A DNA stretch of 45,938 nt from a virus (lineage: Duplodnaviria > Caudoviricetes): the IMG/VR virus record IMGVR_UViG_3300044580_000271, positions 1 through 45,938 of that record; one strand, written 5' to 3'. The position numbers were made by a program, and so were the translations under genes. Below the pieces are notes generated by a model. It was not told where the DNA came from and did not search any database. It saw only the letters and a list, made by a program, of their open reading frames with translations. Shown in pieces: positions 10,145 to 45,938 of this stretch. The stretch's first letter is position 1. The number at the start of each line of letters is the position of its first letter.

Positions 10145-10306
10145 TTAAAAATGATTTAAATGTTCGTAATTTTTTGTGAAATTTTTGTCTTCGTCTAGAA
10201 TGCCAGCGTTAATAAGAGTATTGAGAGCTTCTTTTTTAGAAGTTCTCTTCTTTTTTGCTAATTTTTTTAACAAAACAATATCTTTATTTTTATTGCAATT
10301 CTTCAT
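10145..10306 (-). CDS. Small basic hypothetical protein (53 aa)
   Basis: Read manually: MKNCNKNKDIVLLKKLAKKKRTSKKEALNTLINAGILDEDKNF...; overlaps the upstream stop. Confidence 0.5.
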   Translation of the reverse strand: MKNCNKNKDIVLLKKLAKKKRTSKKEALNTLINAGILDEDKNFTKNYEHLNHF

Positions 10307-11327
10307 CAGAGAGAGTGGTCATGTCATCAAACTGAGAAAAGTTGTTAATTTTAGAAAAGTATTTGTTATTTCGTAGTTCTTCTTGTTTAGATGGGCACAT
10401 TTCATGAATCTTCTTGACTCTCATATGCTCTTTGACCATCTCATAAACTTCTTTCCAATCTGCTCCAATAGATTGAATCCAATCTTTATGTTTTTCAACT
10501 AACTTAGCAGAAACAAACTCATGACCATGTGCGGGCCAAGCCCCTGGCTTTGTAAAAGACTGTTTAGTAACATCAGCTTTTCCTAAATCATGAAATAAAG
10601 CGGCGACAGCATTATTCATGCCTCCCGTTTTACGGGCTCTATTGTAAACTATAGTAATATGTTTCAATACGTCACCTTCTGGATGCCAATAGGCACTTTG
10701 GGGGGTATTGCCACAACGTCTTAAATAGTCTTGTATTTCTTTTGGAGAGGCTTTTGATATTTCTTCAAATGTTGGTATGTAATTCATTGATTGTAAATTT
10801 TCTTTTACTATTCTTAAATTGGAAACTAACTCAAATCTTATATCTAAATGTGGATTTTTTCTTTTGGCTCTATTTATTATTGGCAAATAAGCATTTGTTA
10901 TTTCTTGTTCAGTAAATTCATTTCTGTATTCATCTAAAACTAAATTACTTTCTCCCATTCCTATCATATCAGTATTTCCAACTCTTTGAATACTAATAAA
11001 TTCAGTAGGTAATTTATGAATCCATCTATGGGGTACTGTAACTAAATTTTGAAATTGTAATGAATCTAAAATAGTTTGATGAATACAATTTGCTTTTATT
11101 GATAAATAAACATTTCCTTTTTTGTCTATAATTCCTCTTACATCCGGGGCGATATTACTTAAAGATGAAGGATTTACAATGACCTTAGCTTTTTCATTAA
11201 TGTCTATAATCTTATCTCTATTTTGAGCAATTTCATATTCTTGATTAAACTCATCAAATTCATCAGGAATATAAAATCTTTTAGAAGCATAAACATCACC
11301 TATGCCTTCTCTAACAATTTTAGTCAT
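10290..11327 (-). CDS. Two-domain protein with C-terminal HD phosphohydrolase (type found with CCA-adding enzymes)
   Basis: Q..YWHPEGDVLKH...ALFHDLGK...HGHE...HM motifs. Confidence 0.75.
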   Translation of the reverse strand: MTKIVREGIGDVYASKRFYIPDEFDEFNQEYEIAQNRDKIIDINEKAKVIVNPSSLSNIAPDVRGIIDKKGNVYLSIKANCIHQTILDSLQFQNLVTVPHRWIHKLPTEFISIQRVGNTDMIGMGESNLVLDEYRNEFTEQEITNAYLPIINRAKRKNPHLDIRFELVSNLRIVKENLQSMNYIPTFEEISKASPKEIQDYLRRCGNTPQSAYWHPEGDVLKHITIVYNRARKTGGMNNAVAALFHDLGKADVTKQSFTKPGAWPAHGHEFVSAKLVEKHKDWIQSIGADWKEVYEMVKEHMRVKKIHEMCPSKQEELRNNKYFSKINNFSQFDDMTTLSDEELQ

Positions 11328-11397
11328 TGAATAAACTTTTATTTATTTATTCAATAAAAATGGCGCTCAAGATTTTCGTTTCTTACTATTAAATCTG

Positions 11398-11529
11398 TTA
11401 ATTATAAAGCTGATCCGGATCACTTAATGGAAGAGCTTCACGTAAAATCATTAAACTTCCACGATGAACGTACTTATCAAAATGAAGTTCAGTATTATCT
11501 TTTTCCAAATGAATCTTTGTTTCTGACAT
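11398..11529 (-). CDS. Small hypothetical protein (43 aa, possibly frameshifted)
   Basis: MSETKIHLEKDNTELHFDKYVHRGSLMILREALP...; coding-like sequence continues in another frame to ~11351. Confidence 0.35.
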   Translation of the reverse strand: MSETKIHLEKDNTELHFDKYVHRGSLMILREALPLSDPDQLYN

Positions 11530-11992
11530 AATTATTTAGTATTCGTAAGACTTCTGCATTTGGTAAAATGTGTTTATTGTTTATTTTGAAATACTCTTTA
11601 TCTCCTCTTAAGTAATCTAAGGCAAATTGCCCAATTGCCCCACTCCTGCTTATTCCAGCTGCACAATGTACCAATAGAACTTTTACATCTTTATTGTTAT
11701 CAAGAAAATTAACTACGCGTTTTGCATCTTCTTCAGTAAAAGCTCTAGTTTTCCCTGAATTTGTTGGGGAAATTTCTAAATCGTTTTTAACATCATCGAA
11801 AAAAAGATTGAGTACATTATGGTGAGGCTGGGTAAATAAAGGTGTGTGATAATAATTTCCTTCAGTATCATTGATGCAAATAAATGCATAATTTATTATA
11901 GCATCAACAGAATCATCGTTGATGTTATTTCTTTCTAATACTTCCTGAAATTGAACTTTTGGAAACACGTAAATTTTTACTTTCTCATCCAT
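11495..11992 (-). CDS. Cys-dependent (PTP/dual-specificity) phosphatase
   Basis: HCAAGISRS CX5R P-loop; upstream FDD general-acid motif. Confidence 0.85.
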   Translation of the reverse strand: MDEKVKIYVFPKVQFQEVLERNNINDDSVDAIINYAFICINDTEGNYYHTPLFTQPHHNVLNLFFDDVKNDLEISPTNSGKTRAFTEEDAKRVVNFLDNNKDVKVLLVHCAAGISRSGAIGQFALDYLRGDKEYFKINNKHILPNAEVLRILNNYVRNKDSFGKR

Positions 11993-11995
11993 AAA

Positions 11996-13156
11996 TTATG
12001 TTTTATATTTTTCAACTATTTCTTTTGCTTTATTTAATCTGTAGGTTTTTTCTAAAATAAATTGAACTTTTTTAGTCTTGTATTTATTCTTATCATCGAT
12101 ATAAGCTCTCATGAAATCGAAATAAGGTTCTTTATGACAATTAGTTGCAAATTTAGCAAAATCACCATTGAATTCTGTTAAAAATCTGTTAAAAAGAGCT
12201 TCAACCTTTGAATCAATATGTGATGCATAATTATCAATAGCTTTGGTAACCATATTGATAAAATCAAAAGCATCTTTATCTTCTATTGGATTTAATTGAG
12301 ATACTAAATCATCCAATGTTTCCCTGTAGTAATTCTCAATGACATAATCTTCTCTAAATACGTTCATAGTTCTTAAACCATGAACAGTAAAGTACCACTG
12401 AGTCTTGACCTTCAACAACATACCGTCATCAAAAATAACTACCCACCCCTCTTTATCTTCCTCTACCTTTGATTTTTCAATCAATTGATCAAGAGTAAAT
12501 GATTCGTTTTTAATAAAGTACATGGTAGTTGGAATATTGCTTACTTCTGAAGCAGGGATATAGTCACCATTACTATTATTTCTCAATCCAATGAATCTAA
12601 GTTCTGGACTTCCATATTTAAGTACAATTCTATTAGCATAGGAAACATATTCGAAGAGAGGAGTAAATCCATCTTCAAGTTGTTTTTTAACCCATTTTGT
12701 GTGGTCTTCCCATGCAAACAATAATTGCTGTGATGATATTACTTGTTCATTATCAAATCCTCGTATAGTTTTGGCAAATAATTTTCCGTTTGGTAACATC
12801 ATAAATGCAACCAATGAACCATCTTCCTTTGAAGAAATATGCACAATATTCTTATCTTTAACTTTATCATACTGAGTTTCCTCTATCTGATTTATGTTAA
12901 AGAATTTAGGAAGCATTAAATATCGATTGAAAATAGTTCCATCTTCATTGAATACAAACGTAACTCCTCTCATATCGAAAGCAGTGATATTTGGTTCATT
13001 TGGAAGTGGGTTTGCAAAATGGTTATAGCCACATATAAAGTAATCAAATGCTGAAATTTTGTAGTTGTCTATTCTCCACATATGTTCAGAAAAATTGAAG
13101 TTGTTGTAATACTTGCAAATCTTCTGTGCGTCATTATATGTGACTAAATACTTCAT
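11996..13156 (-). CDS. T4 Rnl1-family RNA ligase
   Basis: RGxxF, KFFN, motif I KEDGS, FEY...NRIV, EGWV, KVK motifs. Confidence 0.85.
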   Translation of the reverse strand: MKYLVTYNDAQKICKYYNNFNFSEHMWRIDNYKISAFDYFICGYNHFANPLPNEPNITAFDMRGVTFVFNEDGTIFNRYLMLPKFFNINQIEETQYDKVKDKNIVHISSKEDGSLVAFMMLPNGKLFAKTIRGFDNEQVISSQQLLFAWEDHTKWVKKQLEDGFTPLFEYVSYANRIVLKYGSPELRFIGLRNNSNGDYIPASEVSNIPTTMYFIKNESFTLDQLIEKSKVEEDKEGWVVIFDDGMLLKVKTQWYFTVHGLRTMNVFREDYVIENYYRETLDDLVSQLNPIEDKDAFDFINMVTKAIDNYASHIDSKVEALFNRFLTEFNGDFAKFATNCHKEPYFDFMRAYIDDKNKYKTKKVQFILEKTYRLNKAKEIVEKYKT

Positions 13157-13192
13157 GTTGTAAATATAACCAAAAAATATGTAAATAAAAAA

Positions 13193-13963
13193 TTATTTCA
13201 ATCGACTGAAGAATTTTTGAGGATCAAGAATTTCGTCATACGAAGGGGGCTTATTGGTTACTAATATTTTGATCCCTTCTTTAAGTCCTTTTTCATCTAA
13301 AAATTCTTTTAAAAAATAAGAAGAATACCAATAAACAAACTTAACTCTATTATCTTTATCAGTTAATTCTTCTACTGTTTTAGGAATAGGAATTTCGCCA
13401 ATAGGTGAACTTTCATTTAAATAATAAACTACATATTCACATACACCTTCTTCAATAAAATCGGATCCAAACCTTGATCCAGGATTTGGAAATAGTCTTA
13501 TGGTTCCATATTCTGGAGAAACTGAAAGCCCTTCTTGTTTTGCAATAATTAATGTCTGATTAAAATAAACATGAGTCATTTCATGAAAGAGAACTCCCTT
13601 TACAGTTTTTGCCGTATGAGGCATCACTCTTTGTTGATACTTAGTAAGATTTTTGTATTCATATTCAACATATCTTTCTTCGTTATTTATAATTATGTAA
13701 TCAGGAAGATAAAAATTACCTAAATCTCCATCGCCATTTTCATCGAGGTTTTCTGTAAAAAGATATACATCATATAGAGTATCGATTCTATATTCATATT
13801 CAGCAATTAGATTGTCGTGATTATTGCTTATATAGGTGTCAATTCCTTTAGAAGATGGCTTACCCTGCTTATTATAATATAAGGGGTCTTTGTGCTGTTG
13901 TTGTAAAAACGAAAGAAATAATAAAGCAGCTAGTATCGAACCAATCTTTAAAATGTATCTCAT
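13193..13963 (-). CDS. Secreted/membrane-anchored zinc metallopeptidase-like protein
   Basis: N-terminal hydrophobic segment; FHEMTH ... FIEEGVCEY (gluzincin-like). Confidence 0.6.
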   Translation of the reverse strand: MRYILKIGSILAALLFLSFLQQQHKDPLYYNKQGKPSSKGIDTYISNNHDNLIAEYEYRIDTLYDVYLFTENLDENGDGDLGNFYLPDYIIINNEERYVEYEYKNLTKYQQRVMPHTAKTVKGVLFHEMTHVYFNQTLIIAKQEGLSVSPEYGTIRLFPNPGSRFGSDFIEEGVCEYVVYYLNESSPIGEIPIPKTVEELTDKDNRVKFVYWYSSYFLKEFLDEKGLKEGIKILVTNKPPSYDEILDPQKFFSRLK

Positions 13964-17535: not shown

Positions 17536-17898
17536 ATGAAATTCAAAATGACAAATTTCAGCAAGAACATCAGGATTGATTTAAGTGATCGAGAAGTACA
17601 TGTTCCAAAGAAAGAAAAATTCAAAGTAGTTAGAGAAGGAGAAGAATGGAATTCTCAATCAAATATATCTATGCTTTTTGGGTTAAGTGTTTTAGTTGCT
17701 CTTATATTTATGTTTATAAGTATAGCTGCTATAAACAAAGAATGGGAGTCTGTCGGTATTTGGTGCTTAATAACGTTTTTGATGTGTGCGTTGACATTGT
17801 TTATAGGTATACTAAAATATGAGTTTAAATGGCAGACATGGATATGGGTCTTTAATACTATTTTATGGTTTTTTAATACAATTTTACACATTGGATAA
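17536..17898 (+). CDS. Membrane protein (about 3 TM)
   Basis: Three hydrophobic segments. Confidence 0.6.
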   Translation: MKFKMTNFSKNIRIDLSDREVHVPKKEKFKVVREGEEWNSQSNISMLFGLSVLVALIFMFISIAAINKEWESVGIWCLITFLMCALTLFIGILKYEFKWQTWIWVFNTILWFFNTILHIG

Positions 17899-18277
17899 GA
17901 TATTAATCATAGTAAGAGGAATTCCTGGATGTGGAAAATCGACTTTCGCAAAGCTTCTGGGCCGTGCTATTTGCACAGCTGATGATTATCTAACAAGAAA
18001 CGGAAAGTACGAATGGTCTAGAGAAAATACTGGAAAGGCCCATGCATGGTGTCAGAGAAAATGTGAAAGATTCATGAAATCAAGAATAACTCCTGTCATT
18101 GTGGCCAATACTTCTACGACTGAAAAAGAACTTCATCCTTATTATGATTTAGCTAATAAATATGGTTTTGAAGTTTTCTCTATTATTGTTGAAAATCGTC
18201 ATAACGGCATTAATGAACATAATGTTCCAGAAGAAACTCTTGAAAAAATGAGAAATCGTTTTGATATTAAATTATAA
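17891..18277 (+). CDS. P-loop polynucleotide-kinase-like protein (AAA_33)
   Basis: RGIPGCGKST Walker A, ADD, VANT, HNVP motifs; TTG start inferred. Confidence 0.8.
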   Translation: MDKILIIVRGIPGCGKSTFAKLLGRAICTADDYLTRNGKYEWSRENTGKAHAWCQRKCERFMKSRITPVIVANTSTTEKELHPYYDLANKYGFEVFSIIVENRHNGINEHNVPEETLEKMRNRFDIKL

Positions 18278-24316: not shown

Positions 24317-24681
24317 AATCCAACGTTTTAAAAGGAAAAAGTCAAAAGGAAATAATTGATGCCTTTTGTGCTAAACATAATATTGCTAGTTATGAATGGT
24401 CGGAATTTATCCATCAATTAGGAAGGATTCCGCTACAAAAGAATCTTCATTTGGTTTGGACCATCCCGCTTTTCCTAATTGGAATTACGGCTTTATTCAC
24501 TACATTTGGATTTCTTTTTGATGATCAATTTCCAGTCATTTATAAAATAGCCGAAAAAGCTACACCAACATTTTTTCAAAGATTTGTGAATATATTTTAC
24601 GCATTATTGCTATTCATCATTCCATCAATTATTATAGCAATCCCGATAATAAAATGGAATAAAGTATATGGTTGGAGTTAA
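24313..24681 (+). CDS. 2-TM membrane protein
   Basis: LKGKSQKEIIDAFC N-terminus and two TMs. Confidence 0.6.
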   Translation: MKSNVLKGKSQKEIIDAFCAKHNIASYEWSEFIHQLGRIPLQKNLHLVWTIPLFLIGITALFTTFGFLFDDQFPVIYKIAEKATPTFFQRFVNIFYALLLFIIPSIIIAIPIIKWNKVYGWS

Positions 24682-24689
24682 ATGCTGTT

Positions 24690-25796
24690 ATGAAACAATA
24701 TACTATAAAAGAATTAAAAGAAAAAAATCTCATTATCTTTGAAGCGATAATGGGGTCTCATGCTTATGGAACTGTTCTTCCAACTTCAGATAAAGATGTT
24801 CGCGGGGTTTGGATGCAGCCATTTGAAGATATACTTCAATACGGTTATGCAGAACAGGTTGCAGATGAAAAGAATGATGTTGTTTATTACGAACTTAGAC
24901 GATTCATAAATCTTCTTCGTGATAATAATCCAAATATTGTTGAAATTCTTTTTGCACCCGAAGATTGTATTCTTACCACATCTGACGAATGGAAGATTCT
25001 CAAATCAGTCGACAAGAAATTTCTAACGCAGAAATGTCGTTGGACTTTTGCCGGTTATGCTATTGATCAAATCAAAAAAGCAAGAAGTTACAACAAGAAG
25101 ATGAACTGGGAAGAAGCCCAGATGGTTCGCAAAGGAGTTCTTGATTTTTGCTATATTCTTGATGAAGGCGGATCAACACCTCTTCACGATTGGTTGATAA
25201 GATTTAATGACTCTAAAATCGATATGTATGATCAACGAGACTTTAGTCTTGCTGCGATAGATCATGCTAAGGATGTTTATGCAATGTATCAATTTCCAGG
25301 AGGAATTGTTTCGGATGTCAACACAGCTAATGATGTTCAACTTCAGTCCATCCCAAAAGGCATACTTCCTACCGCGTATTTAACGTTTAATAAGGATGCA
25401 TATTCAACTCATTGTACACGTTACAAGGAATATCAAACATGGCTTAAAGAGCGTAATGAAGACCGTGTGAAAATGAATAAAGCACACAGAAAGAATTATG
25501 ACTCAAAAAACATGATGCACACTTTTCGCCTGCTTAAAGTTGCAATTGAAATTGCAAGAACAGGAAATCTAAATGTTCGTCGTTCACCTGAAGAAATTGA
25601 AGTTCTTATGAAAATTCGTCATGGAGAATATGAATATGATGATCTCCTTCGTGAAGCAGAAGAAATGATTAAGAATCTGGATGATGAGTATGACAAGTCA
25701 ATTCTTCCTGATAAAGTTGATGAATACTATGCAACATCTATTTTATTTGAAATGAGAAAGAAAAGATATGGTTTTAAAAACAACATTATACCTTGA
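24690..25796 (+). CDS. Pol-beta-superfamily nucleotidyltransferase (Nuc-transf/RlaP-like)
   Basis: GSHAYG...SDKDVRG, NNPNIVEIL, YDSKNMMHTFRLL. Confidence 0.8.
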   Translation: MKQYTIKELKEKNLIIFEAIMGSHAYGTVLPTSDKDVRGVWMQPFEDILQYGYAEQVADEKNDVVYYELRRFINLLRDNNPNIVEILFAPEDCILTTSDEWKILKSVDKKFLTQKCRWTFAGYAIDQIKKARSYNKKMNWEEAQMVRKGVLDFCYILDEGGSTPLHDWLIRFNDSKIDMYDQRDFSLAAIDHAKDVYAMYQFPGGIVSDVNTANDVQLQSIPKGILPTAYLTFNKDAYSTHCTRYKEYQTWLKERNEDRVKMNKAHRKNYDSKNMMHTFRLLKVAIEIARTGNLNVRRSPEEIEVLMKIRHGEYEYDDLLREAEEMIKNLDDEYDKSILPDKVDEYYATSILFEMRKKRYGFKNNIIP

Positions 25797-37964: not shown

Positions 37965-38389
37965 AAGCAAAATTTGTAAATGAAACATTACAAGATATTT
38001 TCAAACCTAAAACAGAACAAGAGGTTGAATCTATGTTTAATAAAGCTTTTAAAGATTACAAAAAATACATTATAAAAGAAACCCCATCATACGCAATATT
38101 TCAATTTGACATAGATAGCGAAAAAGTATTACAAGATTTTTGGAAGTTTAATGTATTATGGGCTTCGAGAACTCCTTTTGGAATGCCCTTAAATCAAGCA
38201 AGAAAATATATGGAACAGTATTACAAAGAATTCGGTCCATTTATTCTCGTTATAGATAAATTAGATTCTAAATTTTATTTAACCCAACGTAAAGCCCCTT
38301 TTGTAACAGATATGATAAATGATAGGATGTTAGGAGAAATGGGAGAACAAATTACAGGAGAGAAATTTTTGAAAAAGTATAATTTTTGA
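37961..38389 (+). CDS. Hypothetical protein
   Basis: MKAKFVNE...FKPKT N-terminus. Confidence 0.6.
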   Translation: MKAKFVNETLQDIFKPKTEQEVESMFNKAFKDYKKYIIKETPSYAIFQFDIDSEKVLQDFWKFNVLWASRTPFGMPLNQARKYMEQYYKEFGPFILVIDKLDSKFYLTQRKAPFVTDMINDRMLGEMGEQITGEKFLKKYNF

Positions 38390-38431
38390 AAAAAAAAACA
38401 TTAAAAAATTTTTTTATTTGAAAAAAGTGAT

Positions 38432-38480
38432 TATATTTGCACTATCTATCAAAACTTTTTGTGGGCGAGTGTATATATAA
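38432..38480 (+). promoter_or_regulatory. Tandem promoters for the RNA island
   Basis: tatatttg at 38432; aaact-N16-atatat(aa) at 38452-38480. Confidence 0.55.
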
Positions 38481-38522
38481 TAATATTAAAAATGATTTAA
38501 AAAGCGATAAAGATTTTCAAAG

Positions 38523-38621
38523 ATGATGGCAACGTATTTAACATATAGCCCCTTTAGTTTACCACAACAACTTTGTGAAGAGCTATTTTATGCTCTTAAG
38601 GAGGGAAAGTATAGTGGTTAA
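38523..38621 (+). CDS. Putative attenuator leader peptide MMATYLTYSPFSLPQQLCEELFYALKEGKYSG
   Basis: 32-codon ORF; internal aggaggg is complementary to the terminator 5' arm ccctcct. Confidence 0.55.
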   Translation: MMATYLTYSPFSLPQQLCEELFYALKEGKYSG

Positions 38622-38651
38622 GTAGGTTGTCATACTCTATATAACTTCTTC

Positions 38652-38684
38652 ACCCTCCTCACGAAAGTCTGGAGGGTTTTTTTT
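38652..38684 (+). terminator. Intrinsic terminator at the head of the tRNA island (attenuator)
   Basis: accctcc-tcacgaaagtct-ggagggt plus T-run. Confidence 0.75.
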
Positions 38685-38722
38685 GGTTCTTTGACATATT
38701 GGTAACGTTAAAATAAGATTTC

Positions 38723-38764
38723 TTCGAACCTATTTTGAATATATAGTAGAAATAGGTTCGAATG
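38723..38764 (+). promoter_or_regulatory. 13-bp hairpin reaching the endonuclease start codon, promoter-like loop
   Basis: ttcgaacctattt / aaataggttcgaa; loop contains gaatatata. Confidence 0.7.
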
Positions 38765-39277
38765 AAAATCTGTGAAAATTGTAATAAAGAACACAATGGT
38801 TCTTATGGTAAAGGTAGATTTTGTTCTAAAACGTGTGCTAAATCATTTAGCACCAAAGAAAAAAGATTAGACATAAATATTAAAATAAGTCAAAAGCTAA
38901 AAGGATGTAAATCACCAAAACGAAAGGAGCCAAAAAAATGTTTGAATTGTGGAAATGATTGCCATAAAAAATTCTGTTCAGTTGAGTGTTATAAATTATA
39001 TTATCAAACATTACGAACTGCATTTGAAAATTATAAAATTAAATCACAATTTAAATTTAATGTTTATGATTATCCGAATTATTTTGAACTAATTCTGATT
39101 GAAAAATACGGGTGGTATTCTCCAACAAATAATCTTAATGGAGTTTCAAGAGATCATTTATATTCTGTTAAAGACGGATTTATAAATAATATTGACTGCA
39201 AAATAATTTCACACCCAGCCAATTGTAAATTAGTTCTTCATAAAGATAATCAAAAAAATATAAAAATTCATCTATAA
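38762..39277 (+). CDS. HNH-like homing endonuclease with N-terminal Zn-binding repeats (C-terminus probably frameshifted)
   Basis: CxxC...FCS..C repeats; SRDH...HPANC...HKDN. Confidence 0.7.
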   Translation: MKICENCNKEHNGSYGKGRFCSKTCAKSFSTKEKRLDINIKISQKLKGCKSPKRKEPKKCLNCGNDCHKKFCSVECYKLYYQTLRTAFENYKIKSQFKFNVYDYPNYFELILIEKYGWYSPTNNLNGVSRDHLYSVKDGFINNIDCKIISHPANCKLVLHKDNQKNIKIHL

Positions 39278-39311
39278 CAATTGATGAATTAAAGGAACGA
39301 ATAAAAAATAT

Positions 39312-39382
39312 GGCGAATGGGCAGGACGGCCATGCGGGGGTCTGCAAAACCTCAGAATCCAGTTCAACTCTGGGATTCGCCT
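39312..39382 (+). tRNA. tRNA-Cys(GCA)
   Basis: ggcgaat/attcgcc acceptor; ct-GCA-aa loop. Confidence 0.85.
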
Positions 39383-39384
39383 CT

Positions 39385-39541
39385 AAACTGTAGTAATGTT
39401 AAGAGTTACTTCGTAGCTTTGGGAGCCGGTATCGCAAGATGTGGAGGTTCAAGTCCTTCTTCCCCGCACAGATATTCGCGGGGAATGGTGAAATGGTAGA
39501 CACGCCGTAAGAAAAAATACTCTAAACGAGTTTCTCAGTTT
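39385..39541 (+). ncRNA. Scaffold-A RNA carrying a circularly permuted Leu-type tRNA mimic
   Basis: aaactg/cagttt closing stem; order is variable arm, T-arm, loop-closed acceptor, D-arm. Confidence 0.75.
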
Positions 39542-39556
39542 TTATTTTATTTTTAT

Positions 39557-39632
39557 GCCGGCATAGTTCAGTAGGTAGAGCAGCTGTCTTGTAAACAGCA
39601 GGTCGGGGGTTCGAATCCGTCTGCCGGCTCCA
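39557..39632 (+). tRNA. tRNA-Thr(TGT)
   Basis: gctgt-ctTGTaa-acagc; encoded CCA. Confidence 0.92.
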
Positions 39633-39634
39633 AT

Positions 39635-39773
39635 GGGGAGAAAGTTTAAAAAAGAAAAAACACTCTAGTTGACTTTCTCATGTAAATGTAGTAATAACGA
39701 AGAGTTACTTCGAAGGTAAAACGTTAGTTTTGAAATACTAAATTTGTTGGTTCAAATCCAGCTCTCCCCGCCA
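39635..39773 (+). ncRNA. tRNA-like RNA with permuted scaffold A inserted in the D-loop; 8-nt anticodon loop
   Basis: ggggaga/tctcccc-g-cca; gttt/aaac D-stem enclosing 71 nt; intact T-arm. Confidence 0.75.
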
Positions 39774-39777
39774 AATA

Positions 39778-39854
39778 AAGTTGTAGTAATAAGAAGAGAT
39801 ACATCGTAGCTCCATAAATTACCACAAAAAACTCTTTTTTGAATTTCTCAACTT
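39778..39854 (+). ncRNA. Scaffold-A RNA, minimal copy
   Basis: aagttg-tagtaa...aagagatacatcg...actct...tttctc-aactt. Confidence 0.7.
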
Positions 39855-39858
39855 AAAC

Positions 39859-39932
39859 TGCCTTATAGCGTAATTGGCAGCGCGCAAGCCTCTGGAGCTT
39901 GGTCAGTCGGGGTTCGAGTCCCTGTAAGGCAA
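39859..39932 (+). tRNA. tRNA-Gln(CTG)
   Basis: caagc-ctCTGga-gcttg; tgcctta/taaggca acceptor. Confidence 0.9.
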
Positions 39933-40047
39933 CTGAGTGAACATTGTGGAGTTAGTGTAATGGTAGCACGCCCGGCGGGTGTCTGGGAAGACTGGTTCGA
40001 ATCCGGTACCATGATCGACACAATTGACTGTAGGGAATAGACCTACA
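39933..40047 (+). ncRNA. Scaffold-B RNA with a degenerate colinear tRNA insert
   Basis: ctgagtgaaca...tcgacac-aattgac-tgtagg-gaataga-cctaca; D-arm and T-arm inside. Confidence 0.7.
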
Positions 40048-40053
40048 AAAAAT

Positions 40054-40125
40054 TGCCCTATAGCACAATGGCCAGTGCACGGGACTTTGGATCCTGGGAT
40101 TCACGTTCGAGTCGTGGTGGGGCAG
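40054..40125 (+). tRNA. tRNA-Gln(TTG)
   Basis: cggga-ctTTGga-tcctg. Confidence 0.9.
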
Positions 40126-40251
40126 CTGAGTGAACATCGTCATTAAAGAGAGTTGAGGGTTCAAATCCCTCATATCGGTTCATAAACTGATATTAGTGTA
40201 ACGGTAACATACTGCAACGATCAACACGATTGACAGCAGGGAAAGACCTGC
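40126..40251 (+). ncRNA. Scaffold-B RNA with a circularly permuted tRNA mimic
   Basis: T-arm gaggg-ttcaaat-ccctc, closed acceptor atatcggtt-cata-aactgatat, then D-arm gtgt-aacggta-acat. Confidence 0.75.
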
Positions 40252-40255
40252 AAAA

Positions 40256-40329
40256 CGGGGTATAGCACAGTTGGTAGCGCGCATGCTTTGGGAGCATGAG
40301 GTCGTCGGTTCGAGCCCGGCTACCCCCGA
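40256..40329 (+). tRNA. tRNA-Pro(TGG)
   Basis: catgc-ttTGGga-gcatg; one extra C in the 3' acceptor strand. Confidence 0.88.
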
Positions 40330-40407
40330 CTGAATCAACAGCGTCAACGGGGGCCAGTTGGTGGCCCTGCGGTCCGTTCTAGATGATTGACTTCAGGGAA
40401 AGACCTG
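40330..40407 (+). ncRNA. Scaffold-B RNA, short copy
   Basis: ctgaatcaaca...gattgac-ttcagg-gaaaga-cctg; insert gggcca-gttgg-tggccc. Confidence 0.65.
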
Positions 40408-40411
40408 TAAC

Positions 40412-40493
40412 GCCCCCATAGGAGAATTGGTATATCCACCTGGCTTAGGACCAGGCGTCTATGACATTGAGAGTTCGAGTCTCTCTGGGGGCA
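40412..40493 (+). tRNA. tRNA-Leu(TAG)
   Basis: cctgg-ctTAGga-ccagg; long variable arm. Confidence 0.9.
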
Positions 40494-40500
40494 CAAATTT

Positions 40501-40541
40501 CATGGTTAACTCAAATATATAAAGTAAAAGAGTTAACCATG
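40501..40541 (+). promoter_or_regulatory. 12-bp hairpin sequestering the HNH start codon
   Basis: catggttaactc / gagttaaccatg; loop contains atatataa. Confidence 0.75.
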
Positions 40542-40967
40542 AATAAAAAAGAATTAGATAACGAAATTATTCAGGCTTGCAAAAAAAGTAGAACAATGTC
40601 TGAAGCATCAAAAATTATTGGAATTCCATATTCCACATTTAAACGAAAAACAATATTATTGGGTTTATGGAAACCAAATCAAGGAGGAAAAGGAATCGCA
40701 AATATATCACTTGAAGATGTATTTAATGGAAAAAAATATCTTAGAAGTTATCAATTAAAAAATAAATTAATTGCAGAAGGGTATAAAGAAGCAAAATGTG
40801 AAGAATGTGGATTAGGAGAAGAATGGAATGACAAAATTCTTGTACTAGAATTAGACCACATAAATGGAAATAAAAGGGATAATAGATTAGAAAATTTAAA
40901 AATATTGTGTCCAAATTGTCATTCACAAACACCAACTTTTAGAGGAAGAAAAAATGGAAATGAATAA
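40539..40967 (+). CDS. HNH homing endonuclease
   Basis: CEECG...LELDHINGNKRDNRLENLKILCPNCH; the ORF-track start overlaps tRNA-Leu, so 40539 is used. Confidence 0.9.
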   Translation: MNKKELDNEIIQACKKSRTMSEASKIIGIPYSTFKRKTILLGLWKPNQGGKGIANISLEDVFNGKKYLRSYQLKNKLIAEGYKEAKCEECGLGEEWNDKILVLELDHINGNKRDNRLENLKILCPNCHSQTPTFRGRKNGNE

Positions 40968-41129
40968 ACAATTTTTACAGTTTTTAGATTCATTAATTCA
41001 TAGTAAAAATTTTAATTTTCGATATAGATTAAAATTAAAAATTTCGACCCAAGGAAAAAATTTATGCAGCAGTATTTGATGAAAGAAGGATTAATGAACT
41101 TATAAATAATAATTTTCATGAATTGTAAT

Positions 41130-41202
41130 GCTCGGTTCGTCTAGTGGTCAGGACATCAGGTTTTCATCCTGGGGATCAGGGGTTCGACCCCCCTACCGAG
41201 TA
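41130..41202 (+). tRNA. tRNA-Glu(TTC)
   Basis: tcagg-ttTTCat-cctgg. Confidence 0.9.
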
Positions 41203-41207
41203 CAAAT

Positions 41208-41289
41208 GTTGCGTTATACAAGCGGCCAAAGTGGTCAGACCTTCAATCTGATTCGTAATGATTCGCGGGTTCGAATCCCGCACGCAATA
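41208..41289 (+). tRNA. Atypical long-variable-arm tRNA, anticodon TTC, C33; identity uncertain
   Basis: gttgcgt/acgcaat acceptor; tcaga-ccTTCaa-tctga; extended variable region. Confidence 0.65.
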
Positions 41290-41290
41290 C

Positions 41291-41377
41291 GTCCAAATGG
41301 TGGAATTGGTAGACACGCTAGCTTGAGGGGCTAGTGCCATAACAGGTTTGGGGGTTCGAGTCCCCCTTTGGACACCA
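41291..41377 (+). tRNA. tRNA-Leu(GAG)
   Basis: ctagc-ttGAGgg-gctag; encoded CCA. Confidence 0.92.
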
Positions 41378-41380
41378 AAT

Positions 41381-41461
41381 GCCGACGTTGAGCAATTGGC
41401 TGGCTCGCCTGACTGTAGATCAGGTCCTTCGGGCGTAGGGGTTCGAGTCCCTTCGGCGGCA
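41381..41461 (+). tRNA. tRNA-Tyr(GTA), variant with G37
   Basis: cctga-ctGTAga-tcagg; one A.G mismatch in the acceptor. Confidence 0.8.
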
Positions 41462-41581
41462 CAAAAGGTTAGTAATTCGGACGCCTAACCAGCAGAAGGA
41501 TGAAGTTTCCTTGGCGAAATTGATCGAAACAGTCTTGGTGGTTCTTGTACATGTCGTGATAAAGTGACCAAAAACTATAAC

Positions 41582-41654
41582 GGAGTCTTGGCAGAGTTGG
41601 TCAACGCGCTGGACTGAAAATCCAGAGATCCAGGTTCGATCCCAGGAGGCTCCA
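41582..41654 (+). tRNA. tRNA-Phe(GAA)
   Basis: ctgga-ctGAAaa-tccag. Confidence 0.88.
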
Positions 41655-41741
41655 CAAAAAATTTTCAAAAATATTTTTTTATTTGAAAACTTTTGATTAC
41701 ATTAGCCTTAGAATAAAAAACAGTTCTTTGATAAAGATACT

Positions 41742-42036
41742 TGGCTTAATCAGGCGCCCGTAGGGCGTATGGTCGTCGATTACCGAACCTCGGTTTACGA
41801 TCAATGATAATGAGAGTTGTAGTTCAAGAATGTAGCGTAAAGTTACTGCAGACTGCAATAGAAATTAGCCTGGTAGGAAATCCTCGGATTCCTATTAATC
41901 TCAATAGTAAGAGGACGTGAGAGATTATTAAGTCATTTACAGATTGGGGAATAGGTAGAGTGGTCTTCGACCGGTGGTAACTTGCAAGACCTGACTTTAG
42001 AAAACCGGCATGGGCGCGGGTGGCCCAACCCAATCT
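41742..42036 (+). ncRNA. Unassigned ~295-nt multi-hairpin RNA
   Basis: Closing stems tggcttaat/attaagtca and agattggg/cccaatct; many internal hairpins; own promoter-like site and boxA-like site upstream. Confidence 0.6.
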
Positions 42037-42039
42037 AAC

Positions 42040-42127
42040 GGGGCGATACCGAAGTGGCCAAACGGGCCCTGCCGTAAACAGGGTGGCTCTACGGAGTCTT
42101 CGATGGTTCGAATCCATTCTCACCCCA
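42040..42127 (+). tRNA. tRNA-Tyr(GTA), variant with C33
   Basis: ccctg-ccGTAaa-caggg; long variable arm; C.A mismatch in the acceptor. Confidence 0.8.
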
Positions 42128-42151
42128 CAAAAGATGTTCTTTGAAAATACT

Positions 42152-42456
42152 TGATTCAGCTAGGAGTGACCAAAATTTAGATTAAATTAGAATTAATTAG
42201 TAAATGATGAAGAGGTTAAATTCCTCAAAAACAGACGGTTCGATTCCGTCGGCGGCTTTACCGTTAAAGGATGTAATATTAGATAATAATATGATAAAAA
42301 CGGTCCTATTAGGTCTATGCTTAAATGAAACTCCTTTAGGGTTCTAGATACCTAACACTTTCTCTAAGATTGTATGCCTTCGGGCTGGATGGAGAGAATG
42401 GATCAAAAGTGGCTGATGTCATTTAGTTGTGCTAGGATTCGCGATCTTAGCACAAC
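42152..42456 (+). ncRNA. Unassigned ~300-nt structured RNA with an internal T-arm
   Basis: tcagcta/tggctga closing stem; gacgg-ttcgatt-ccgtc; 13-bp terminal hairpin at 42426-42456. Confidence 0.5.
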
Positions 42457-42460
42457 AATC

Positions 42461-42543
42461 GGGAAGGTACCGAAGCGGTCAACCGGGACAGACTGTAAAT
42501 CTGTTGGCTTAGGCCTTCGTAGGTTCGAATCCTGCCCTTCCCA
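42461..42543 (+). tRNA. tRNA-Tyr(GTA), canonical
   Basis: acaga-ctGTAaa-tctgt; gggaagg/ccttccc acceptor. Confidence 0.92.
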
Positions 42544-42588
42544 CCTCACTTTTTGTACCTTGAACATAGATATATAAAATAAAAATCT

Positions 42589-42984
42589 ATGCCAAGAAAA
42601 CAAAAAGTTTATAACGTTCTTTATAAAACTACTTGTTTGATTACAAATCGATATTATATCGGTATGCATTCAACAAATAATTTAAATGATGGTTATTTAG
42701 GAAGTGGTTCTCACTTACGATATTCAGTTAATAAATATGGAGCTGAAAATCATAAATTTGAAATTCTCGAACAACTTCCAAATAGAAGTTCTTTAAAAAA
42801 TAGAGAAAAAGAAATTGTTAATGAAGAAATGCTTAAAGACCCTTTGTGCATGAATTTAAAACCTGGTGGAGAAGGAGGTCTTAGCAATCCAATTCATCGA
42901 AAAAAATTTCTTGAAGCAGGTACTTTGGCTGCTTCAAAGAGTGTAAGAGAAATGCAACACAGTGGGTGGGAATGGGTGATTTAA
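42589..42984 (+). CDS. GIY-YIG (Seg-like) homing endonuclease, short
   Basis: VLYKTT...YYIGMHST...YLGSG...E...MNL. Confidence 0.85.
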   Translation: MPRKQKVYNVLYKTTCLITNRYYIGMHSTNNLNDGYLGSGSHLRYSVNKYGAENHKFEILEQLPNRSSLKNREKEIVNEEMLKDPLCMNLKPGGEGGLSNPIHRKKFLEAGTLAASKSVREMQHSGWEWVI

Positions 42985-42997
42985 ATTAATCAAAGAT

Positions 42998-43351
42998 ATG
43001 TTTATTCAACATCACGGGGCATTGCAGCAATCTAAAATCGGGACTTCATCAAGCTATGTGTCTTTAAGTCCGACTTCATTAAAATTTGAGGATTCTGGTT
43101 CACCCTATACCTATAATTATACTTATGTAACATCTTCAGGTTCCTGGACAGCTTCGTTGCCAAGTGGTGATCCTTATTCAATATTACAGAATTACACAGC
43201 ATCAGGCAGCGGAAGTGGTAATGCTTATGTTGATATAAATTATAATGATAGTTATGAAAATTGTCAATATGTAGTCATAAGATACACAAGTGGAACTGCT
43301 TATGCTGATTTAGTTGTTTATCGAGATGGAATAACAAATACTTACCCATAA
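42998..43351 (+). CDS. BACON-like Ig-fold protein
   Basis: LSPTSLKF...VTSSGSWTAS...SGSGSG pattern. Confidence 0.55.
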   Translation: MFIQHHGALQQSKIGTSSSYVSLSPTSLKFEDSGSPYTYNYTYVTSSGSWTASLPSGDPYSILQNYTASGSGSGNAYVDINYNDSYENCQYVVIRYTSGTAYADLVVYRDGITNTYP

Positions 43352-43369
43352 TTCAAATAAATATTATGT

Positions 43370-45490
43370 ATGGCAACTTATTATATTTCAAATACTGGGT
43401 CCGATGGTAATACTGGGACATCTTCATCAAGTCCTTGGGCAACATTATCTAAAGTTAATTCTTATACATTTTCTGCTGGAGATATTATTTTGTTTCAGAG
43501 AGGAGGAATCTGGAGAGAACAAACTAGTTTAGTTCCACAAAGTGGGACAAGTTCAGCCGTTATTTATTATGGTGCCTATGGTACAGGGGATAAACCAAAA
43601 ATATTAGGTAGTAAACAAGAAAATTCCACAGGAGATTGGACAAATGTTGGCACAAATCTTTGGAGAAATACAGATACAACTTTTACAAATACAAATGGCG
43701 GAGTTGGGAATATTATTTTTAATGATGAAGAAAGTATTGGTTGGAAAGTATACTCTTCAGGAGACCTTAATTCCCAAGGAGATTTTTATTATGACTTAAC
43801 TAATCAACAAATTACACTATATTCTACATCCAATCCTGCATCCTATTACAGCAATATTGAATGTGCTTTAGGCAAGGATGCTGTAAGATTATGGAGTTCG
43901 CAGGATTACGTAACTATAGAGAATATTGATTTCAGATATTGGGCTGCTCACGGAATAAGTGCAGGAGGGGGTAATAATAATATTACAATTCGGGATTGTA
44001 ATTTTCAATATATAGGAGGTGGTGATTTTGACGGAGGTTCCTATGGTAATGCAATACAATTTTGGGGGTCTTGTAGCAATATCTTGATAGAGAAAAATAC
44101 ATTTTATGAAATATATGACGCTGCTATAACTCACCAATATTCTGGATCAACAGTTGTTACGGTAAGTAATTTTGTTGTAAGACTTAACATTGTAAATAAA
44201 GCCTATTATAGTTGGGAACATTTTCTTACTGCTAATTCAGGTAGCAGTATATCTGGAATGTATGTACAGAATAATACATTTGTTAATGCAGGTTCGTCGT
44301 GGAGTGATATGCAAAGACCACTTGATCAAAATAATGGTCGGCACATAATGATATGGGAAATGACGTCAAATGCATCCTACAGTAATTTGTATATACGAAA
44401 TAATATTTTTGACGTTGCAACAGAAAGTGCTATTCATATAGCTTCAGGATCAATACCTTACTGGACATTTGACTATAATTTATATGATGTCAGCGTTGTA
44501 TGTTACGATGGAGCAACATATACAACATTGACTCAATGGCAGACTGCTCGTTCAAAAGATTTAAATTCTATAACAGGAAATCCTTCTTTTATCAGTTCTA
44601 CAGATTTTCACTTAAGTTCAACTTCTTCACCCGCTTATGGTGCTGGAGTTTATGTGGGATATTCTACTGATTTTGATGGGGTATCTTGGAATAACCCTCC
44701 CTCAATAGGAGCTTATGAATACGATGAGGGTGGTGGTAGTGACTCAAGTTCAGGATTTTACTATCTGACACACAATGGAAAGTATCTTACATATAATGGG
44801 AAATACCTTACTATTAATACTCAGTACTTTGATCCTAGTTTATCATCTTTGCGTACCGATTTTATTGCAGGCTGGCAACTCGACGAATCGGCGGGTAATA
44901 CAGCAAATGAGATAACGGGATATTTTCCCGGAACAAATACGGGAGTAACGGTCAACGCTGTCGGGAAATTCGGTAAGGCTTTTTATTATGGAGGTGCCGG
45001 ATATACCAATGTTGGTGCGAGGGACCCGCTAAAACTACAGACACACACTATTTCGCTTTGGGTCAATACGTCCAGTAACGCAACATCCGGCCTGCTCACT
45101 AATTGGGTCTGGGCCAATTCGCAATATTACGGATATGCAATTACGATGCTATCGGGCGGAACGGTTGAATATAATCTAAGGTTTAATGACGGCACCTATT
45201 TAGTTCTGACTTCTACCGGGGTGATTAATAACGGGGCATGGCACAACATCATTGCGACTTTTGACGGCACTACTGCATACTTATATATTGATAATGTGCA
45301 GGCTGACACTGATTCGGCAGCCGGGGCTAAGACAATACAATATCACGCAAATTGTGCGTTTCACTTAGGCGACCGCAATGAGGGAGATTATCCGCTTACA
45401 GGTTACTTGGACGCACCTTACATCTGGAGCAGGGTAATTACATCCGGCGAAAGAGCGATTATACAAACCAAACCATATCCATTTGAATGA
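43370..45490 (+). CDS. Right-handed beta-helix protein with C-terminal LamG/ConA domain (putative receptor-binding protein or depolymerase)
   Basis: YYISNTGSDGNTGTSSSSPWATL start; pectin-lyase-like repeats; SIGAYE; TISLWV...WHNIIATFDG...LYIDN. Confidence 0.8.
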   Translation: MATYYISNTGSDGNTGTSSSSPWATLSKVNSYTFSAGDIILFQRGGIWREQTSLVPQSGTSSAVIYYGAYGTGDKPKILGSKQENSTGDWTNVGTNLWRNTDTTFTNTNGGVGNIIFNDEESIGWKVYSSGDLNSQGDFYYDLTNQQITLYSTSNPASYYSNIECALGKDAVRLWSSQDYVTIENIDFRYWAAHGISAGGGNNNITIRDCNFQYIGGGDFDGGSYGNAIQFWGSCSNILIEKNTFYEIYDAAITHQYSGSTVVTVSNFVVRLNIVNKAYYSWEHFLTANSGSSISGMYVQNNTFVNAGSSWSDMQRPLDQNNGRHIMIWEMTSNASYSNLYIRNNIFDVATESAIHIASGSIPYWTFDYNLYDVSVVCYDGATYTTLTQWQTARSKDLNSITGNPSFISSTDFHLSSTSSPAYGAGVYVGYSTDFDGVSWNNPPSIGAYEYDEGGGSDSSSGFYYLTHNGKYLTYNGKYLTINTQYFDPSLSSLRTDFIAGWQLDESAGNTANEITGYFPGTNTGVTVNAVGKFGKAFYYGGAGYTNVGARDPLKLQTHTISLWVNTSSNATSGLLTNWVWANSQYYGYAITMLSGGTVEYNLRFNDGTYLVLTSTGVINNGAWHNIIATFDGTTAYLYIDNVQADTDSAAGAKTIQYHANCAFHLGDRNEGDYPLTGYLDAPYIWSRVITSGERAIIQTKPYPFE

Positions 45491-45938
45491 GAAAGTTACT
45501 ACTGATATTATCTGTTTTTATCAGCCTGACCGTATCGGCACAAACGACATGGTATATTTCTCCTTCCGGTAATGATGGAACGGGTACCGGGACTATTGAT
45601 GATCCCTGGCGCACACTTTATAAGGCCTGTACTGACCCGTCCGTTTCGGAAGGCGACAATATTTATGTCATGGCCGGGACCTATACTATTTCAACTCAAA
45701 TACCCTGGCCCGATGGAGTAAGTATAATCGGAGAGGGAATGTACCGGTCGATATTTAACTGTTCGGTTTCAGATGGTCCGGCTATCAAAGGAGAGAGTTA
45801 CGGTCATTCCGGCGACACGAATTATGGCAACCAGTCAATAAGCTATTGCGGCTTTAATGGCAACCTTACCGGGTATCAGGCTATTGCAGTCAACTTCCGT
45901 TCAAACGTAGAAATACATCATTGCAGTTTTGAAAATTT
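45487..45938 (+). CDS. Signal-peptide-bearing beta-helix protein, runs off the right edge
   Basis: Read manually: MRKLLLILSVFISLTVSA-QTTWYISPSGNDGTGTGTIDDPWRTL...IYVMAGTY. Confidence 0.75.
   Translation, partial: MRKLLLILSVFISLTVSAQTTWYISPSGNDGTGTGTIDDPWRTLYKACTDPSVSEGDNIYVMAGTYTISTQIPWPDGVSIIGEGMYRSIFNCSVSDGPAIKGESYGHSGDTNYGNQSISYCGFNGNLTGYQAIAVNFRSNVEIHHCSFEN

Follow-up and report, generated by a model that had tools for sequence, protein, structure and literature searches.

In the account of Chen et al. 2014 (PMC4201824), the YrlA effector consists of a T-arm, a closed acceptor stem and a D-arm, which is what the source defines as YrlA order, while the Yrn1 effector runs through a D-arm, an anticodon-like arm and a T-arm, and the YrlB and Yrn2 effectors are long hairpins. 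The same source describes handles that differ between lineages, YrlA RNAs lying nearly all within 4 kb of Ro60, and a Deinococcus radiodurans Yrn2 made as one precursor with tRNA-Asp. In phage phiLo, Ro60 (phiRo60) is described as binding two phage Y-like RNAs (Yrl1 and Yrl2) and recruiting host PNPase (PMC12135203), and ROT/TROVE jumbo phages are mentioned in the context of RNA repair (PMC7824862). The theta ribozymes, minimal HDV-like RNAs (Kienbeck et al. 2024), are reported to adjoin directly the 3' end of phage tRNAs that lack CCA, and they occupy this position in Bacteroidota phages (PMC10879173).

The window analysed here is the whole of a 45,938-nt (45.9-kb) virus record. Its CheckV completeness of 11% suggests that the record is a fragment of a genome near 400 kb, which would make the virus a jumbo phage. 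A tRNA array spans 39312 to 42545 of the window, and a sequence-only reading had proposed that a second, independent handle-plus-tRNA-mimic family (family B, beside the family-A units upstream) begins directly behind three consecutive tRNAs of this array. Our results uphold the existence of such a family, since the handle covaries and every full unit was found at tRNA position 74. The three units are arranged as follows.

39859..39933, + strand: tRNA-Gln(CUG), with discriminator A39932, C74 at 39933 and CCA absent
39934..39942, + strand: unit 1 handle 5' strand, comprising UGA, the P1 5' strand (39937-39939) and RAC
39943..40015, + strand: unit 1 cargo, a colinear degenerate tRNA with G33 and without a free 3' end, whose acceptor stem is the P2 closing helix
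40016..40028, + strand: unit 1 handle 3' strand and UGAC lead, comprising CNA, the P1 3' strand (40019-40021) and RAK
40029..40047, + strand: unit 1 end hairpin P3, with a GAAUAGA loop at 40035-40041
40054..40126, + strand: tRNA-Gln(UUG), with discriminator G40125 and C74 at 40126
40127..40135, + strand: unit 2 handle 5' strand
40136..40221, + strand: unit 2 cargo, a permuted tRNA mimic in YrlA order (T-loop 40159, loop-closed acceptor stem, D-arm 40194)
40222..40234, + strand: unit 2 handle 3' strand and UGAC lead
40236..40251, + strand: unit 2 end hairpin P3, with a GAAAGA loop at 40241-40246
40256..40330, + strand: tRNA-Pro(UGG), with discriminator A40329 and C74 at 40330
40331..40339, + strand: unit 3 handle 5' strand
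40340..40378, + strand: unit 3 cargo, a hairpin with a GUNGG loop
40379..40391, + strand: unit 3 handle 3' strand and UGAC lead
40394..40407, + strand: unit 3 end hairpin P3, with a GAAAGA loop at 40398-40403
40412..40493, + strand: tRNA-Leu(UAG), the next tRNA, whose 5' cut would set the 3' end of unit 3

When both strands of the window were scanned, the 5' motif matched exactly three times (39933, 40126 and 40330), against about 0.10 matches expected from base composition, a comparison that is indicative only because the motif was derived from these same copies. The TTGAC-stem-GAA(T)AGA element also matched three times (40024, 40230 and 40387), and the final stems of the three units pair as had been claimed. 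The element boundaries needed correction: the 3' handle strand begins 8 nt before the ATTGAC at which it had been placed, and the inner P1 helix had been overlooked, as had the Ro60 gene of the adjoining contig described below. The acceptor 3' strand of tRNA-Pro (40323-40327) carries five C in the window versus four in three relatives, which reflects either an assembly error or a bulged acceptor stem.

To describe the handle, we derived a fold in which C74 is followed by UGA-NYS-RAC-(P2 cargo P2')-CNA-NNN-RAK-UGAC-N-P3 hairpin. P1 is a 3-bp helix formed by three free positions of the 5' strand and three of the 3' strand (pairs seen: G-C/C-G; U-A/C-G; A-U/G-C/U-A/G-U). Across 13 scaffold variants, P1 was paired in 36 of 39 cases (shuffled mean 24.8, with 0 of 20000 shuffles as high; slid registers 7-24 of 39), P2 in 61 of 65 and P3 in 51 of 52. 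An independent count on an alignment of 11 units found 94.7% of cells paired and 9 of 12 pairs changed on both sides, with 0 of 500 shuffles reaching the observed pairing and slid registers giving 30-45%. These counts come from related rows from which the structure itself was derived, and because all full units belong to a single syntenic phage group, the covariation draws on 3-4 paralogue lines. The units have 21 invariant columns, and the invariant unpaired nucleotides cluster beside the tRNA junction. P1 is flanked by the invariant purine-rich loops UGA/RAK and RAC/CNA, which would form tandem purine (G.A) pairs. The handle stays constant while the cargo and the host tRNA (Gln-CUG, Gln-UUG, Pro-UGG, Thr-UGU) vary.

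Free folding did not recover P1 together with P2 in the covarying register, and enforcing that register costs 1.5-1.7 kcal/mol; an ATTGTG/CACAAT stem in unit 1, first suggested by free folding, is not the conserved stem. Folding z-scores were -2.59 for unit 2 and weak for units 1 (-0.38) and 3 (-0.55). A covariance model built from 11 units and run on 81 sources gave full units 63-108 bits, compared with 17-31 bits for bare hairpins, the top matches being mostly training rows. Only tRNA reached gathering score in the window, and an Rfam search of 38300-43500 with E up to 10 returned nothing relevant to the units. Judged by comparison of related sequences, the family B handle is a defined covarying RNA motif that matches no Rfam family.

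We then compared the cargoes. ARAGORN calls cargo 1 tRNA-Thr(GGT), in agreement with its description as a colinear degenerate tRNA. Its Rfam tRNA score is 26.6 bits, under the cut-off of 29, and it has G in place of U at position 33; P2 of unit 1 is the cargo's own acceptor stem, which therefore runs into the handle and leaves the cargo without a free 3' end. A functional tRNA-Thr(GGT) was rejected on these features, and caution is warranted elsewhere because ARAGORN reports tRNA-mimic cargoes as real tRNAs. Cargo 2 is permuted as proposed, with the T-loop at 40159 before the D-arm at 40194 and a closed stem between them, and cargo 3 is indeed a hairpin, with the loop GTTGG in the window and GTAGG(G) in relatives. 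Among 14 distinct units, six have YrlA order (T-arm, closed acceptor, D-arm), four are colinear and four are hairpins, so that units 2, 1 and 3 match the YrlA, Yrn1 and hairpin layouts, respectively. The three family-A units of the window carry the same three cargo types.

To determine the distribution of family B, pattern scans were run on IMG/VR, JGI metagenomes and GTDB, some of them with no tRNA requirement. The relatives gave 14 distinct full-length units with a covarying handle, so the motif is neither unique to the window nor devoid of covariation. All of them stand at tRNA position 74, including those from tRNA-agnostic scans, behind Gln(CUG), Gln(UUG), Pro(UGG) or Thr(UGU) tRNAs. All come from one group of syntenic phages, comprising near relatives (G001, G002 and G003; 85-98% DNA identity over aligned blocks) and a distant syntenic group (G013, G014 and L336; mostly 30-79% protein identity). 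Family B was absent from the tRNA arrays of four Ro60-positive fragments that are 4-15% complete (G006, G007, G010 and G011). The GTDB pattern scan gave six matches, none with the handle and several probably due to chance; the covariance model R1 gave 0 of 151 Bacteroidia-class genomes, a scan that shows little as it had no positive control; and BLAST of the array against cultured phages matched tRNA pieces only. Family B is thus confined so far to one phage clade. Our literature search found no description of the handle, and five short motifs were absent from six supplementary files of PMC10690425, whose files 1, 2 and 4 lay outside the search and may hold the handle.

Two kinds of trailer were set apart from family B. 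L030 and actinophage trailers share the first ten letters of the motif and do not match model R1; since an estimated 15 or so ten-letter matches are expected among tRNA trailers, they were left out. The L030 trailer (minus strand, behind tRNA-Pro) encloses a tRNA-like gene in a stem and has no family B 3' strand. A separate conserved trailer directly follows single tRNAs, which are of many isotypes, in phages that are small and often GC-rich (L007, L012, L015, L021, L133, L137, L145, L153, L185, L213, L222 and L224); in it, a 5' UGA-N-Y and a 3' R-N-UCA form pairs (judged by eye to covary) that enclose an AGUA/GAA loop-E-like motif. It had no Rfam match in the loci tested and no TROVE gene in the six records tested. 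TROVE was likewise not found in five actinophage records or in G004 and G005.

The UGAC/GAA(U)AGA end hairpin had been counted as part of the family, and the wider scan showed that it is not specific to it: of 74 distinct 3' modules at all loci, 62 have no handle, a few of these lying in coding sequence, where they may be chance matches. All 12 handle-bearing modules are preceded by C. Ten of them keep the exact spacing from a T-loop; the remaining pair belongs to L329, where one is truncated at the end of the locus and the other follows a damaged tRNA-Pro. The hairpin occurs in tandem in L067, L260, L276, L302, L323, L335 and L365, and stand-alone copies elsewhere precede tRNAs, terminators or genes. 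It is identical to the 3' end of each family B unit and uncatalogued (no Rfam family for it or for the actinophage trailers was found in 9, 8 and 20 loci), and it is joined to the handle only in family B's phage clade. It is a widespread stand-alone end module and, lying 4-6 nt before the next tRNA in family B, most likely marks and protects a 3' end. In L334:301-322, a UGAC/GAAAGA hairpin lies inside an apparent CRISPR spacer between direct repeats.

These comparisons bear on whether the units are simply decayed tRNA genes and spacers, functionless, next to a generic end hairpin. The ARAGORN call for cargo 1, the wide occurrence of the hairpin and the restriction of family B to one clade would agree with decay. 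However, decay does not account for the compensatory changes that P1 and P2 show while the cargo differs, for the 21 invariant columns or for a permuted T-before-D order retained in 6 of 14 units; with covariation largely refuting it, we regard decay as very improbable.

To define the 5' boundary of the RNAs, we examined the base following the discriminator. The 5' motif had been placed at the very next base after the discriminator of tRNAs lacking an encoded CCA, with RNA 5' ends at 39933, 40126 and 40330. The placement holds for all three tRNAs, and CCA is absent, but C74 is encoded, and the first C of the motif is this C74. C follows the discriminator in 12 of 12 window tRNAs checked and stands at position 74 in 80 of 84 scaffold-free rows of related arrays, two of the 84 being tRNA-like calls rather than clear tRNAs; the four exceptions, one of which is the window's tRNA-Pro, look mis-registered by the rule used. 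Because C is present after nearly all array tRNAs, it is taken as the tRNA's own C74, and the family B RNA probably starts at U75, so that 5' ends at the three C positions are not supported. C74-U75 also precedes 6 of 7 family-A units, compared with 26 of the other 84 rows, a difference with p = 0.007 among rows that are not independent.

Release of the family B RNAs during tRNA maturation is plausible from this arrangement. In a first step, a host RNase Z-type enzyme would cut between C74 and U75, freeing a tRNA that carries the first C of CCA and giving the RNA a 5' UGA. In work by Pellegrini et al. in 2012, B. subtilis RNase Z reportedly cuts before a U further downstream, a finding for B. 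subtilis rather than for this phage's host. In a second step, RNase P acting at the next tRNA, 4-6 nt beyond the hairpin, would make the 3' end, where the end hairpin likely blocks exonucleases. RNase Z is described as maturing CCA-less precursors (PMC4919913, PMC7479834), and the B. subtilis enzyme has a structure determined with a U74 trailer (PMC8943300). A CCA-adding (PolyA_pol) gene was not found in five fragments that are 11-15% complete.

The stretch occurs in 20 public RNA runs, available as contigs only. In the four examined, short contigs of low depth (about 3-5) cover parts of the units; neither ends nor strand nor level can be read from such contigs, some of which may be DNA. One RNA-library contig (X13) covers 39985-40222 without a difference, running unbroken over unit 1, tRNA-Gln and unit 2, and may be DNA or precursor. 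This contig would fit an arrangement in which the unit stays on the tRNA or leaves slowly, as a structured trailer in cis that gates 3' maturation of tRNA-Gln, tRNA-Pro and tRNA-Thr, as would the zero spacer between C74 and the handle in every unit and the narrow isotype set of the host tRNAs. Such gating leaves unexplained three interchangeable tRNA-mimic cargoes common to family A, and the same tRNA types occur without family B in these arrays; we consider it decidedly improbable.

Elsewhere in the array, the non-coding stretch 42160-42380 had a contig depth of 59.6 in RNA run X11 versus about 2-4 for the phage's other contigs, and may be an abundant unannotated RNA; a weak match to a tmRNA T-arm lies inside it at 42234-42250. 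A long non-coding region at 41720-42030, probably structured and without an Rfam match, is kept in G003. CUA-anticodon tRNAs, of the amber suppressor type, occur in related phages (L237:5010-5082, L292 and L293), and the stop codons of 48 window ORFs are TAA in 37, TGA in 8 and TAG in 3.

The position directly behind a tRNA also invites comparison with self-cleaving RNAs. Like theta ribozymes, family B starts within 1 nt of a tRNA 3' end. It differs from them in having a large tRNA-like insert, in starting with C or U rather than G1, and in lacking the nested double pseudoknot, since loop pairing of at most 3 bp is possible. Even so, the handle and end hairpin might together form a theta-like ribozyme whose cut falls at C74 or beside it and whose variable stem holds the cargo; it would be a new self-cleaving class in which the G.A-rich handle and the GAAAGA hairpin dock to give a protein-free cut at C74/U75. 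If true, a CCA-ready tRNA and a stable tRNA decoy would be freed in one step. Consistent with this are the exact position in all full units, the invariant unpaired nucleotides gathered beside the junction, the same position of theta ribozymes in Bacteroidota phages (PMC10879173) and the prospect that a structured trailer would stop exonucleolytic trimming. On the other side, Rfam gave no ribozyme match with E as high as 10, an HDV-type G1 and pseudoknot are absent, the loop or UGAC could pair with the handle over 3 bp at most, 62 of the 74 hairpin variants have no handle, and a ribozyme has no need of conserved tRNA T- and D-loops. Both the theta-like cut and the new class are therefore improbable in our estimate. 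Readings as a hammerhead, glmS, box C/D or k-turn, or metazoan Y-helix RNA were dropped on comparison with consensus features, because the covarying register has no 3-nt bulge and UGAC is unpaired.

To assess the link with Ro60, we searched for TROVE genes. G003, the record with units 2 and 3, codes for a TROVE protein of 570 aa. A scan with this protein gave 14 phage loci, which form about six or seven lineages, and the B-bearing records G013 and G014 hold two of these loci; Ro60 and family B thus share a record in G003, G013 and G014. The last 55 nt of the window (45884..45938, + strand) overlap exactly with the start of contig L281, which continues the window's last open frame and then regains G003 synteny where the window left off. 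The TROVE gene at L281:7206-8888 was matched by Pfam (E = 7e-9), by PHROG 850 (E = 2e-30) and, as best PDB match, by phiRo60 (E = 3e-18). The overlap, frame and synteny make it very likely that this phage has a Ro60 gene, linked by contig overlap rather than by one record, on the same strand as unit 3 and about 12.7 kb downstream of it. The contig join also spans about 3.2 kb of inserted DNA that carries laminin-G and beta-helix genes (window 42953-45938 plus L281:1-260); the insertion interrupts a GIY-YIG-type homing endonuclease gene at 42589 that is intact in G003.

Family A, with its GUAGURA...UACUUCG handle, lies in the same array, carries the same three cargo types and is also often found behind a C74-U75 tRNA. 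Its units in the window are as follows.

39387-39539, + strand: family-A unit with cargo in YrlA order
39635-39773, + strand: family-A unit, tRNA-like, with the handle inserted in the D-loop
39780-39852, + strand: family-A unit, minimal

The unit at 39635-39773 has a paired acceptor stem and an encoded CCA, and its D-loop handle is permuted with the 3' half first; the arrangement also occurs in L177. Two further family-A units stand just upstream of the L281 Ro60 gene (L281:6653-6830), and family-A loci were noted at window 39387-39852, at these L281 positions and in L421-L425 and L440. Of the 14 phage Ro60 loci, 13 have the A handle within 10 kb, and in eight it lies no more than about 600 nt upstream; the exception has only 381 nt of upstream sequence. 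TROVE was found in 27 of 401 Bacteroidia-class genomes (a tally that includes one unpublished genome, on which no conclusion depends), and among 20 Bacteroidia-class Ro60 loci (4.5-11 kb) family A was present in six and family B in none. A loose family-A pattern was no richer in the 401 genomes than its reversed control. The family-A handle common to the phage and Bacteroidia-class genomes, our sole basis on this point, suggests a Bacteroidota host.

Family B differs from family A in its handle and in not flanking Ro60 genes, as family A does in both phages and Bacteroidia-class hosts. Measured against Y RNAs, family B has the Ro60 gene in the same genome and on the same strand (through L281 in this phage), a stem formed from the 5' and 3' ends with internal loops (P1 and P2 covary) and, in unit 2 and 6 of 14 units overall, the order of T-arm, closed acceptor and D-arm. 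Further likeness lies in a tRNA-like domain set on an end stem, a colinear unit 1, a plain-hairpin unit 3 and linkage to tRNA. By contrast, its distance from Ro60 (about 12.7 kb) exceeds 4 kb, and family A holds the adjacent position. The Ro60 motif GNCGAAN0-1G is present in 0 of 14 units, and CGAA in two, neither a window copy; because family-A handles also lack the Ro60 motif by eye, it may be lineage-specific. Family B has no single-bulge helix, its handle being a 3-bp helix between purine-rich loops, and it starts at tRNA position 74/75 without a spacer and ends in the UGAC/GAA(U)AGA hairpin. The Rfam YrlA model (RF02553) reached at best 13.7 bits in the window versus a cut-off of 69, with 0 of 5 records above it; the model also fails family A, yet A units rank best among full-length matches (21.1 and 18.5 bits). 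With family A beside Ro60 and family B lacking several Y RNA features, family A is very likely a Bacteroidota-type Y RNA, although under the Rfam YrlA cut-off, and would be the cognate one, and family B is not a YrlA member by the features tested.

The layouts match the three Y RNA effector types, and phiRo60 provides a precedent; we therefore read family B as a second handle in the Y-RNA toolkit. Specifically, we favour, at a probability of roughly 45%, the reading that the family B RNAs are Y-RNA-like tRNA mimics on a second, uncatalogued handle, likely serving as decoys or tethers on phage Ro60. The locus would comprise three non-coding RNA genes, each with a covarying handle and a swappable tRNA-like insert, cut from the tRNA-array transcript. 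In a third step after release, the irregular handle would bind a protein, most likely Ro60, and display a non-chargeable tRNA elbow, anticodon arm or D-loop-like hairpin. During infection, enzymes that recognise tRNA (host tRNA nucleases, PNPase, repair enzymes) would be engaged by the displayed mimic. We count against the involvement of Ro60 that family A rather than family B is tied to it, that its motif is found in 0 of 14 units, that the YrlA model failed and that family B occurs in one clade.

The same released tRNA-mimic RNAs might instead bind another phage or host protein, as a second RNP parallel to Ro60 and family A. The B handle is unlike both that of family A and the YrlA motif, family A already explains the adjacency to Ro60, and family B is restricted to one clade while Ro60 and family A are wider. 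Against another protein, no candidate RNA-binding or other partner gene stood out when B-positive and B-negative fragments, all incomplete, were compared; the genes of B-positive fragments missing from B-negative ones were unannotated small ORFs and an RNase H-like gene only. Moreover, bacteria with several Y RNAs are described as using one Ro60 with unlike handles (PMC4201824). A different protein partner is thus possible and, on balance, unlikely.

In the favoured reading of Y-RNA-like decoys or tethers on Ro60, the decoy role would stand alongside an RNA ligase/PNK repair set of the phage. The window encodes a clamp loader, a DNA ligase and an exonuclease, together with the following RNA repair genes.

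11495-11992: DSPc-like phosphatase
11996..13156, - strand: T4 Rnl1-type RNA ligase
17819-18277: PNK-like kinase
24672-25796: RlaP nucleotidyltransferase

RNA end-healing and sealing genes, including one for an HD protein, occupy 10290-13963, 17819-18277 and 24672-25796.

If the favoured reading is right, one jumbo phage would carry at least eight Y-like RNAs (five of family A and three of family B) on two unrelated handles that present the same three kinds of tRNA mimic. The family B motif, new to Rfam, would mark either a second Ro60-binding mode or the site of another partner. The purpose of the tRNA-like domain of bacterial Y RNAs is left open in PMC4201824; because handle and cargo are naturally swapped here and can be assayed separately, the function of this domain would become directly testable.
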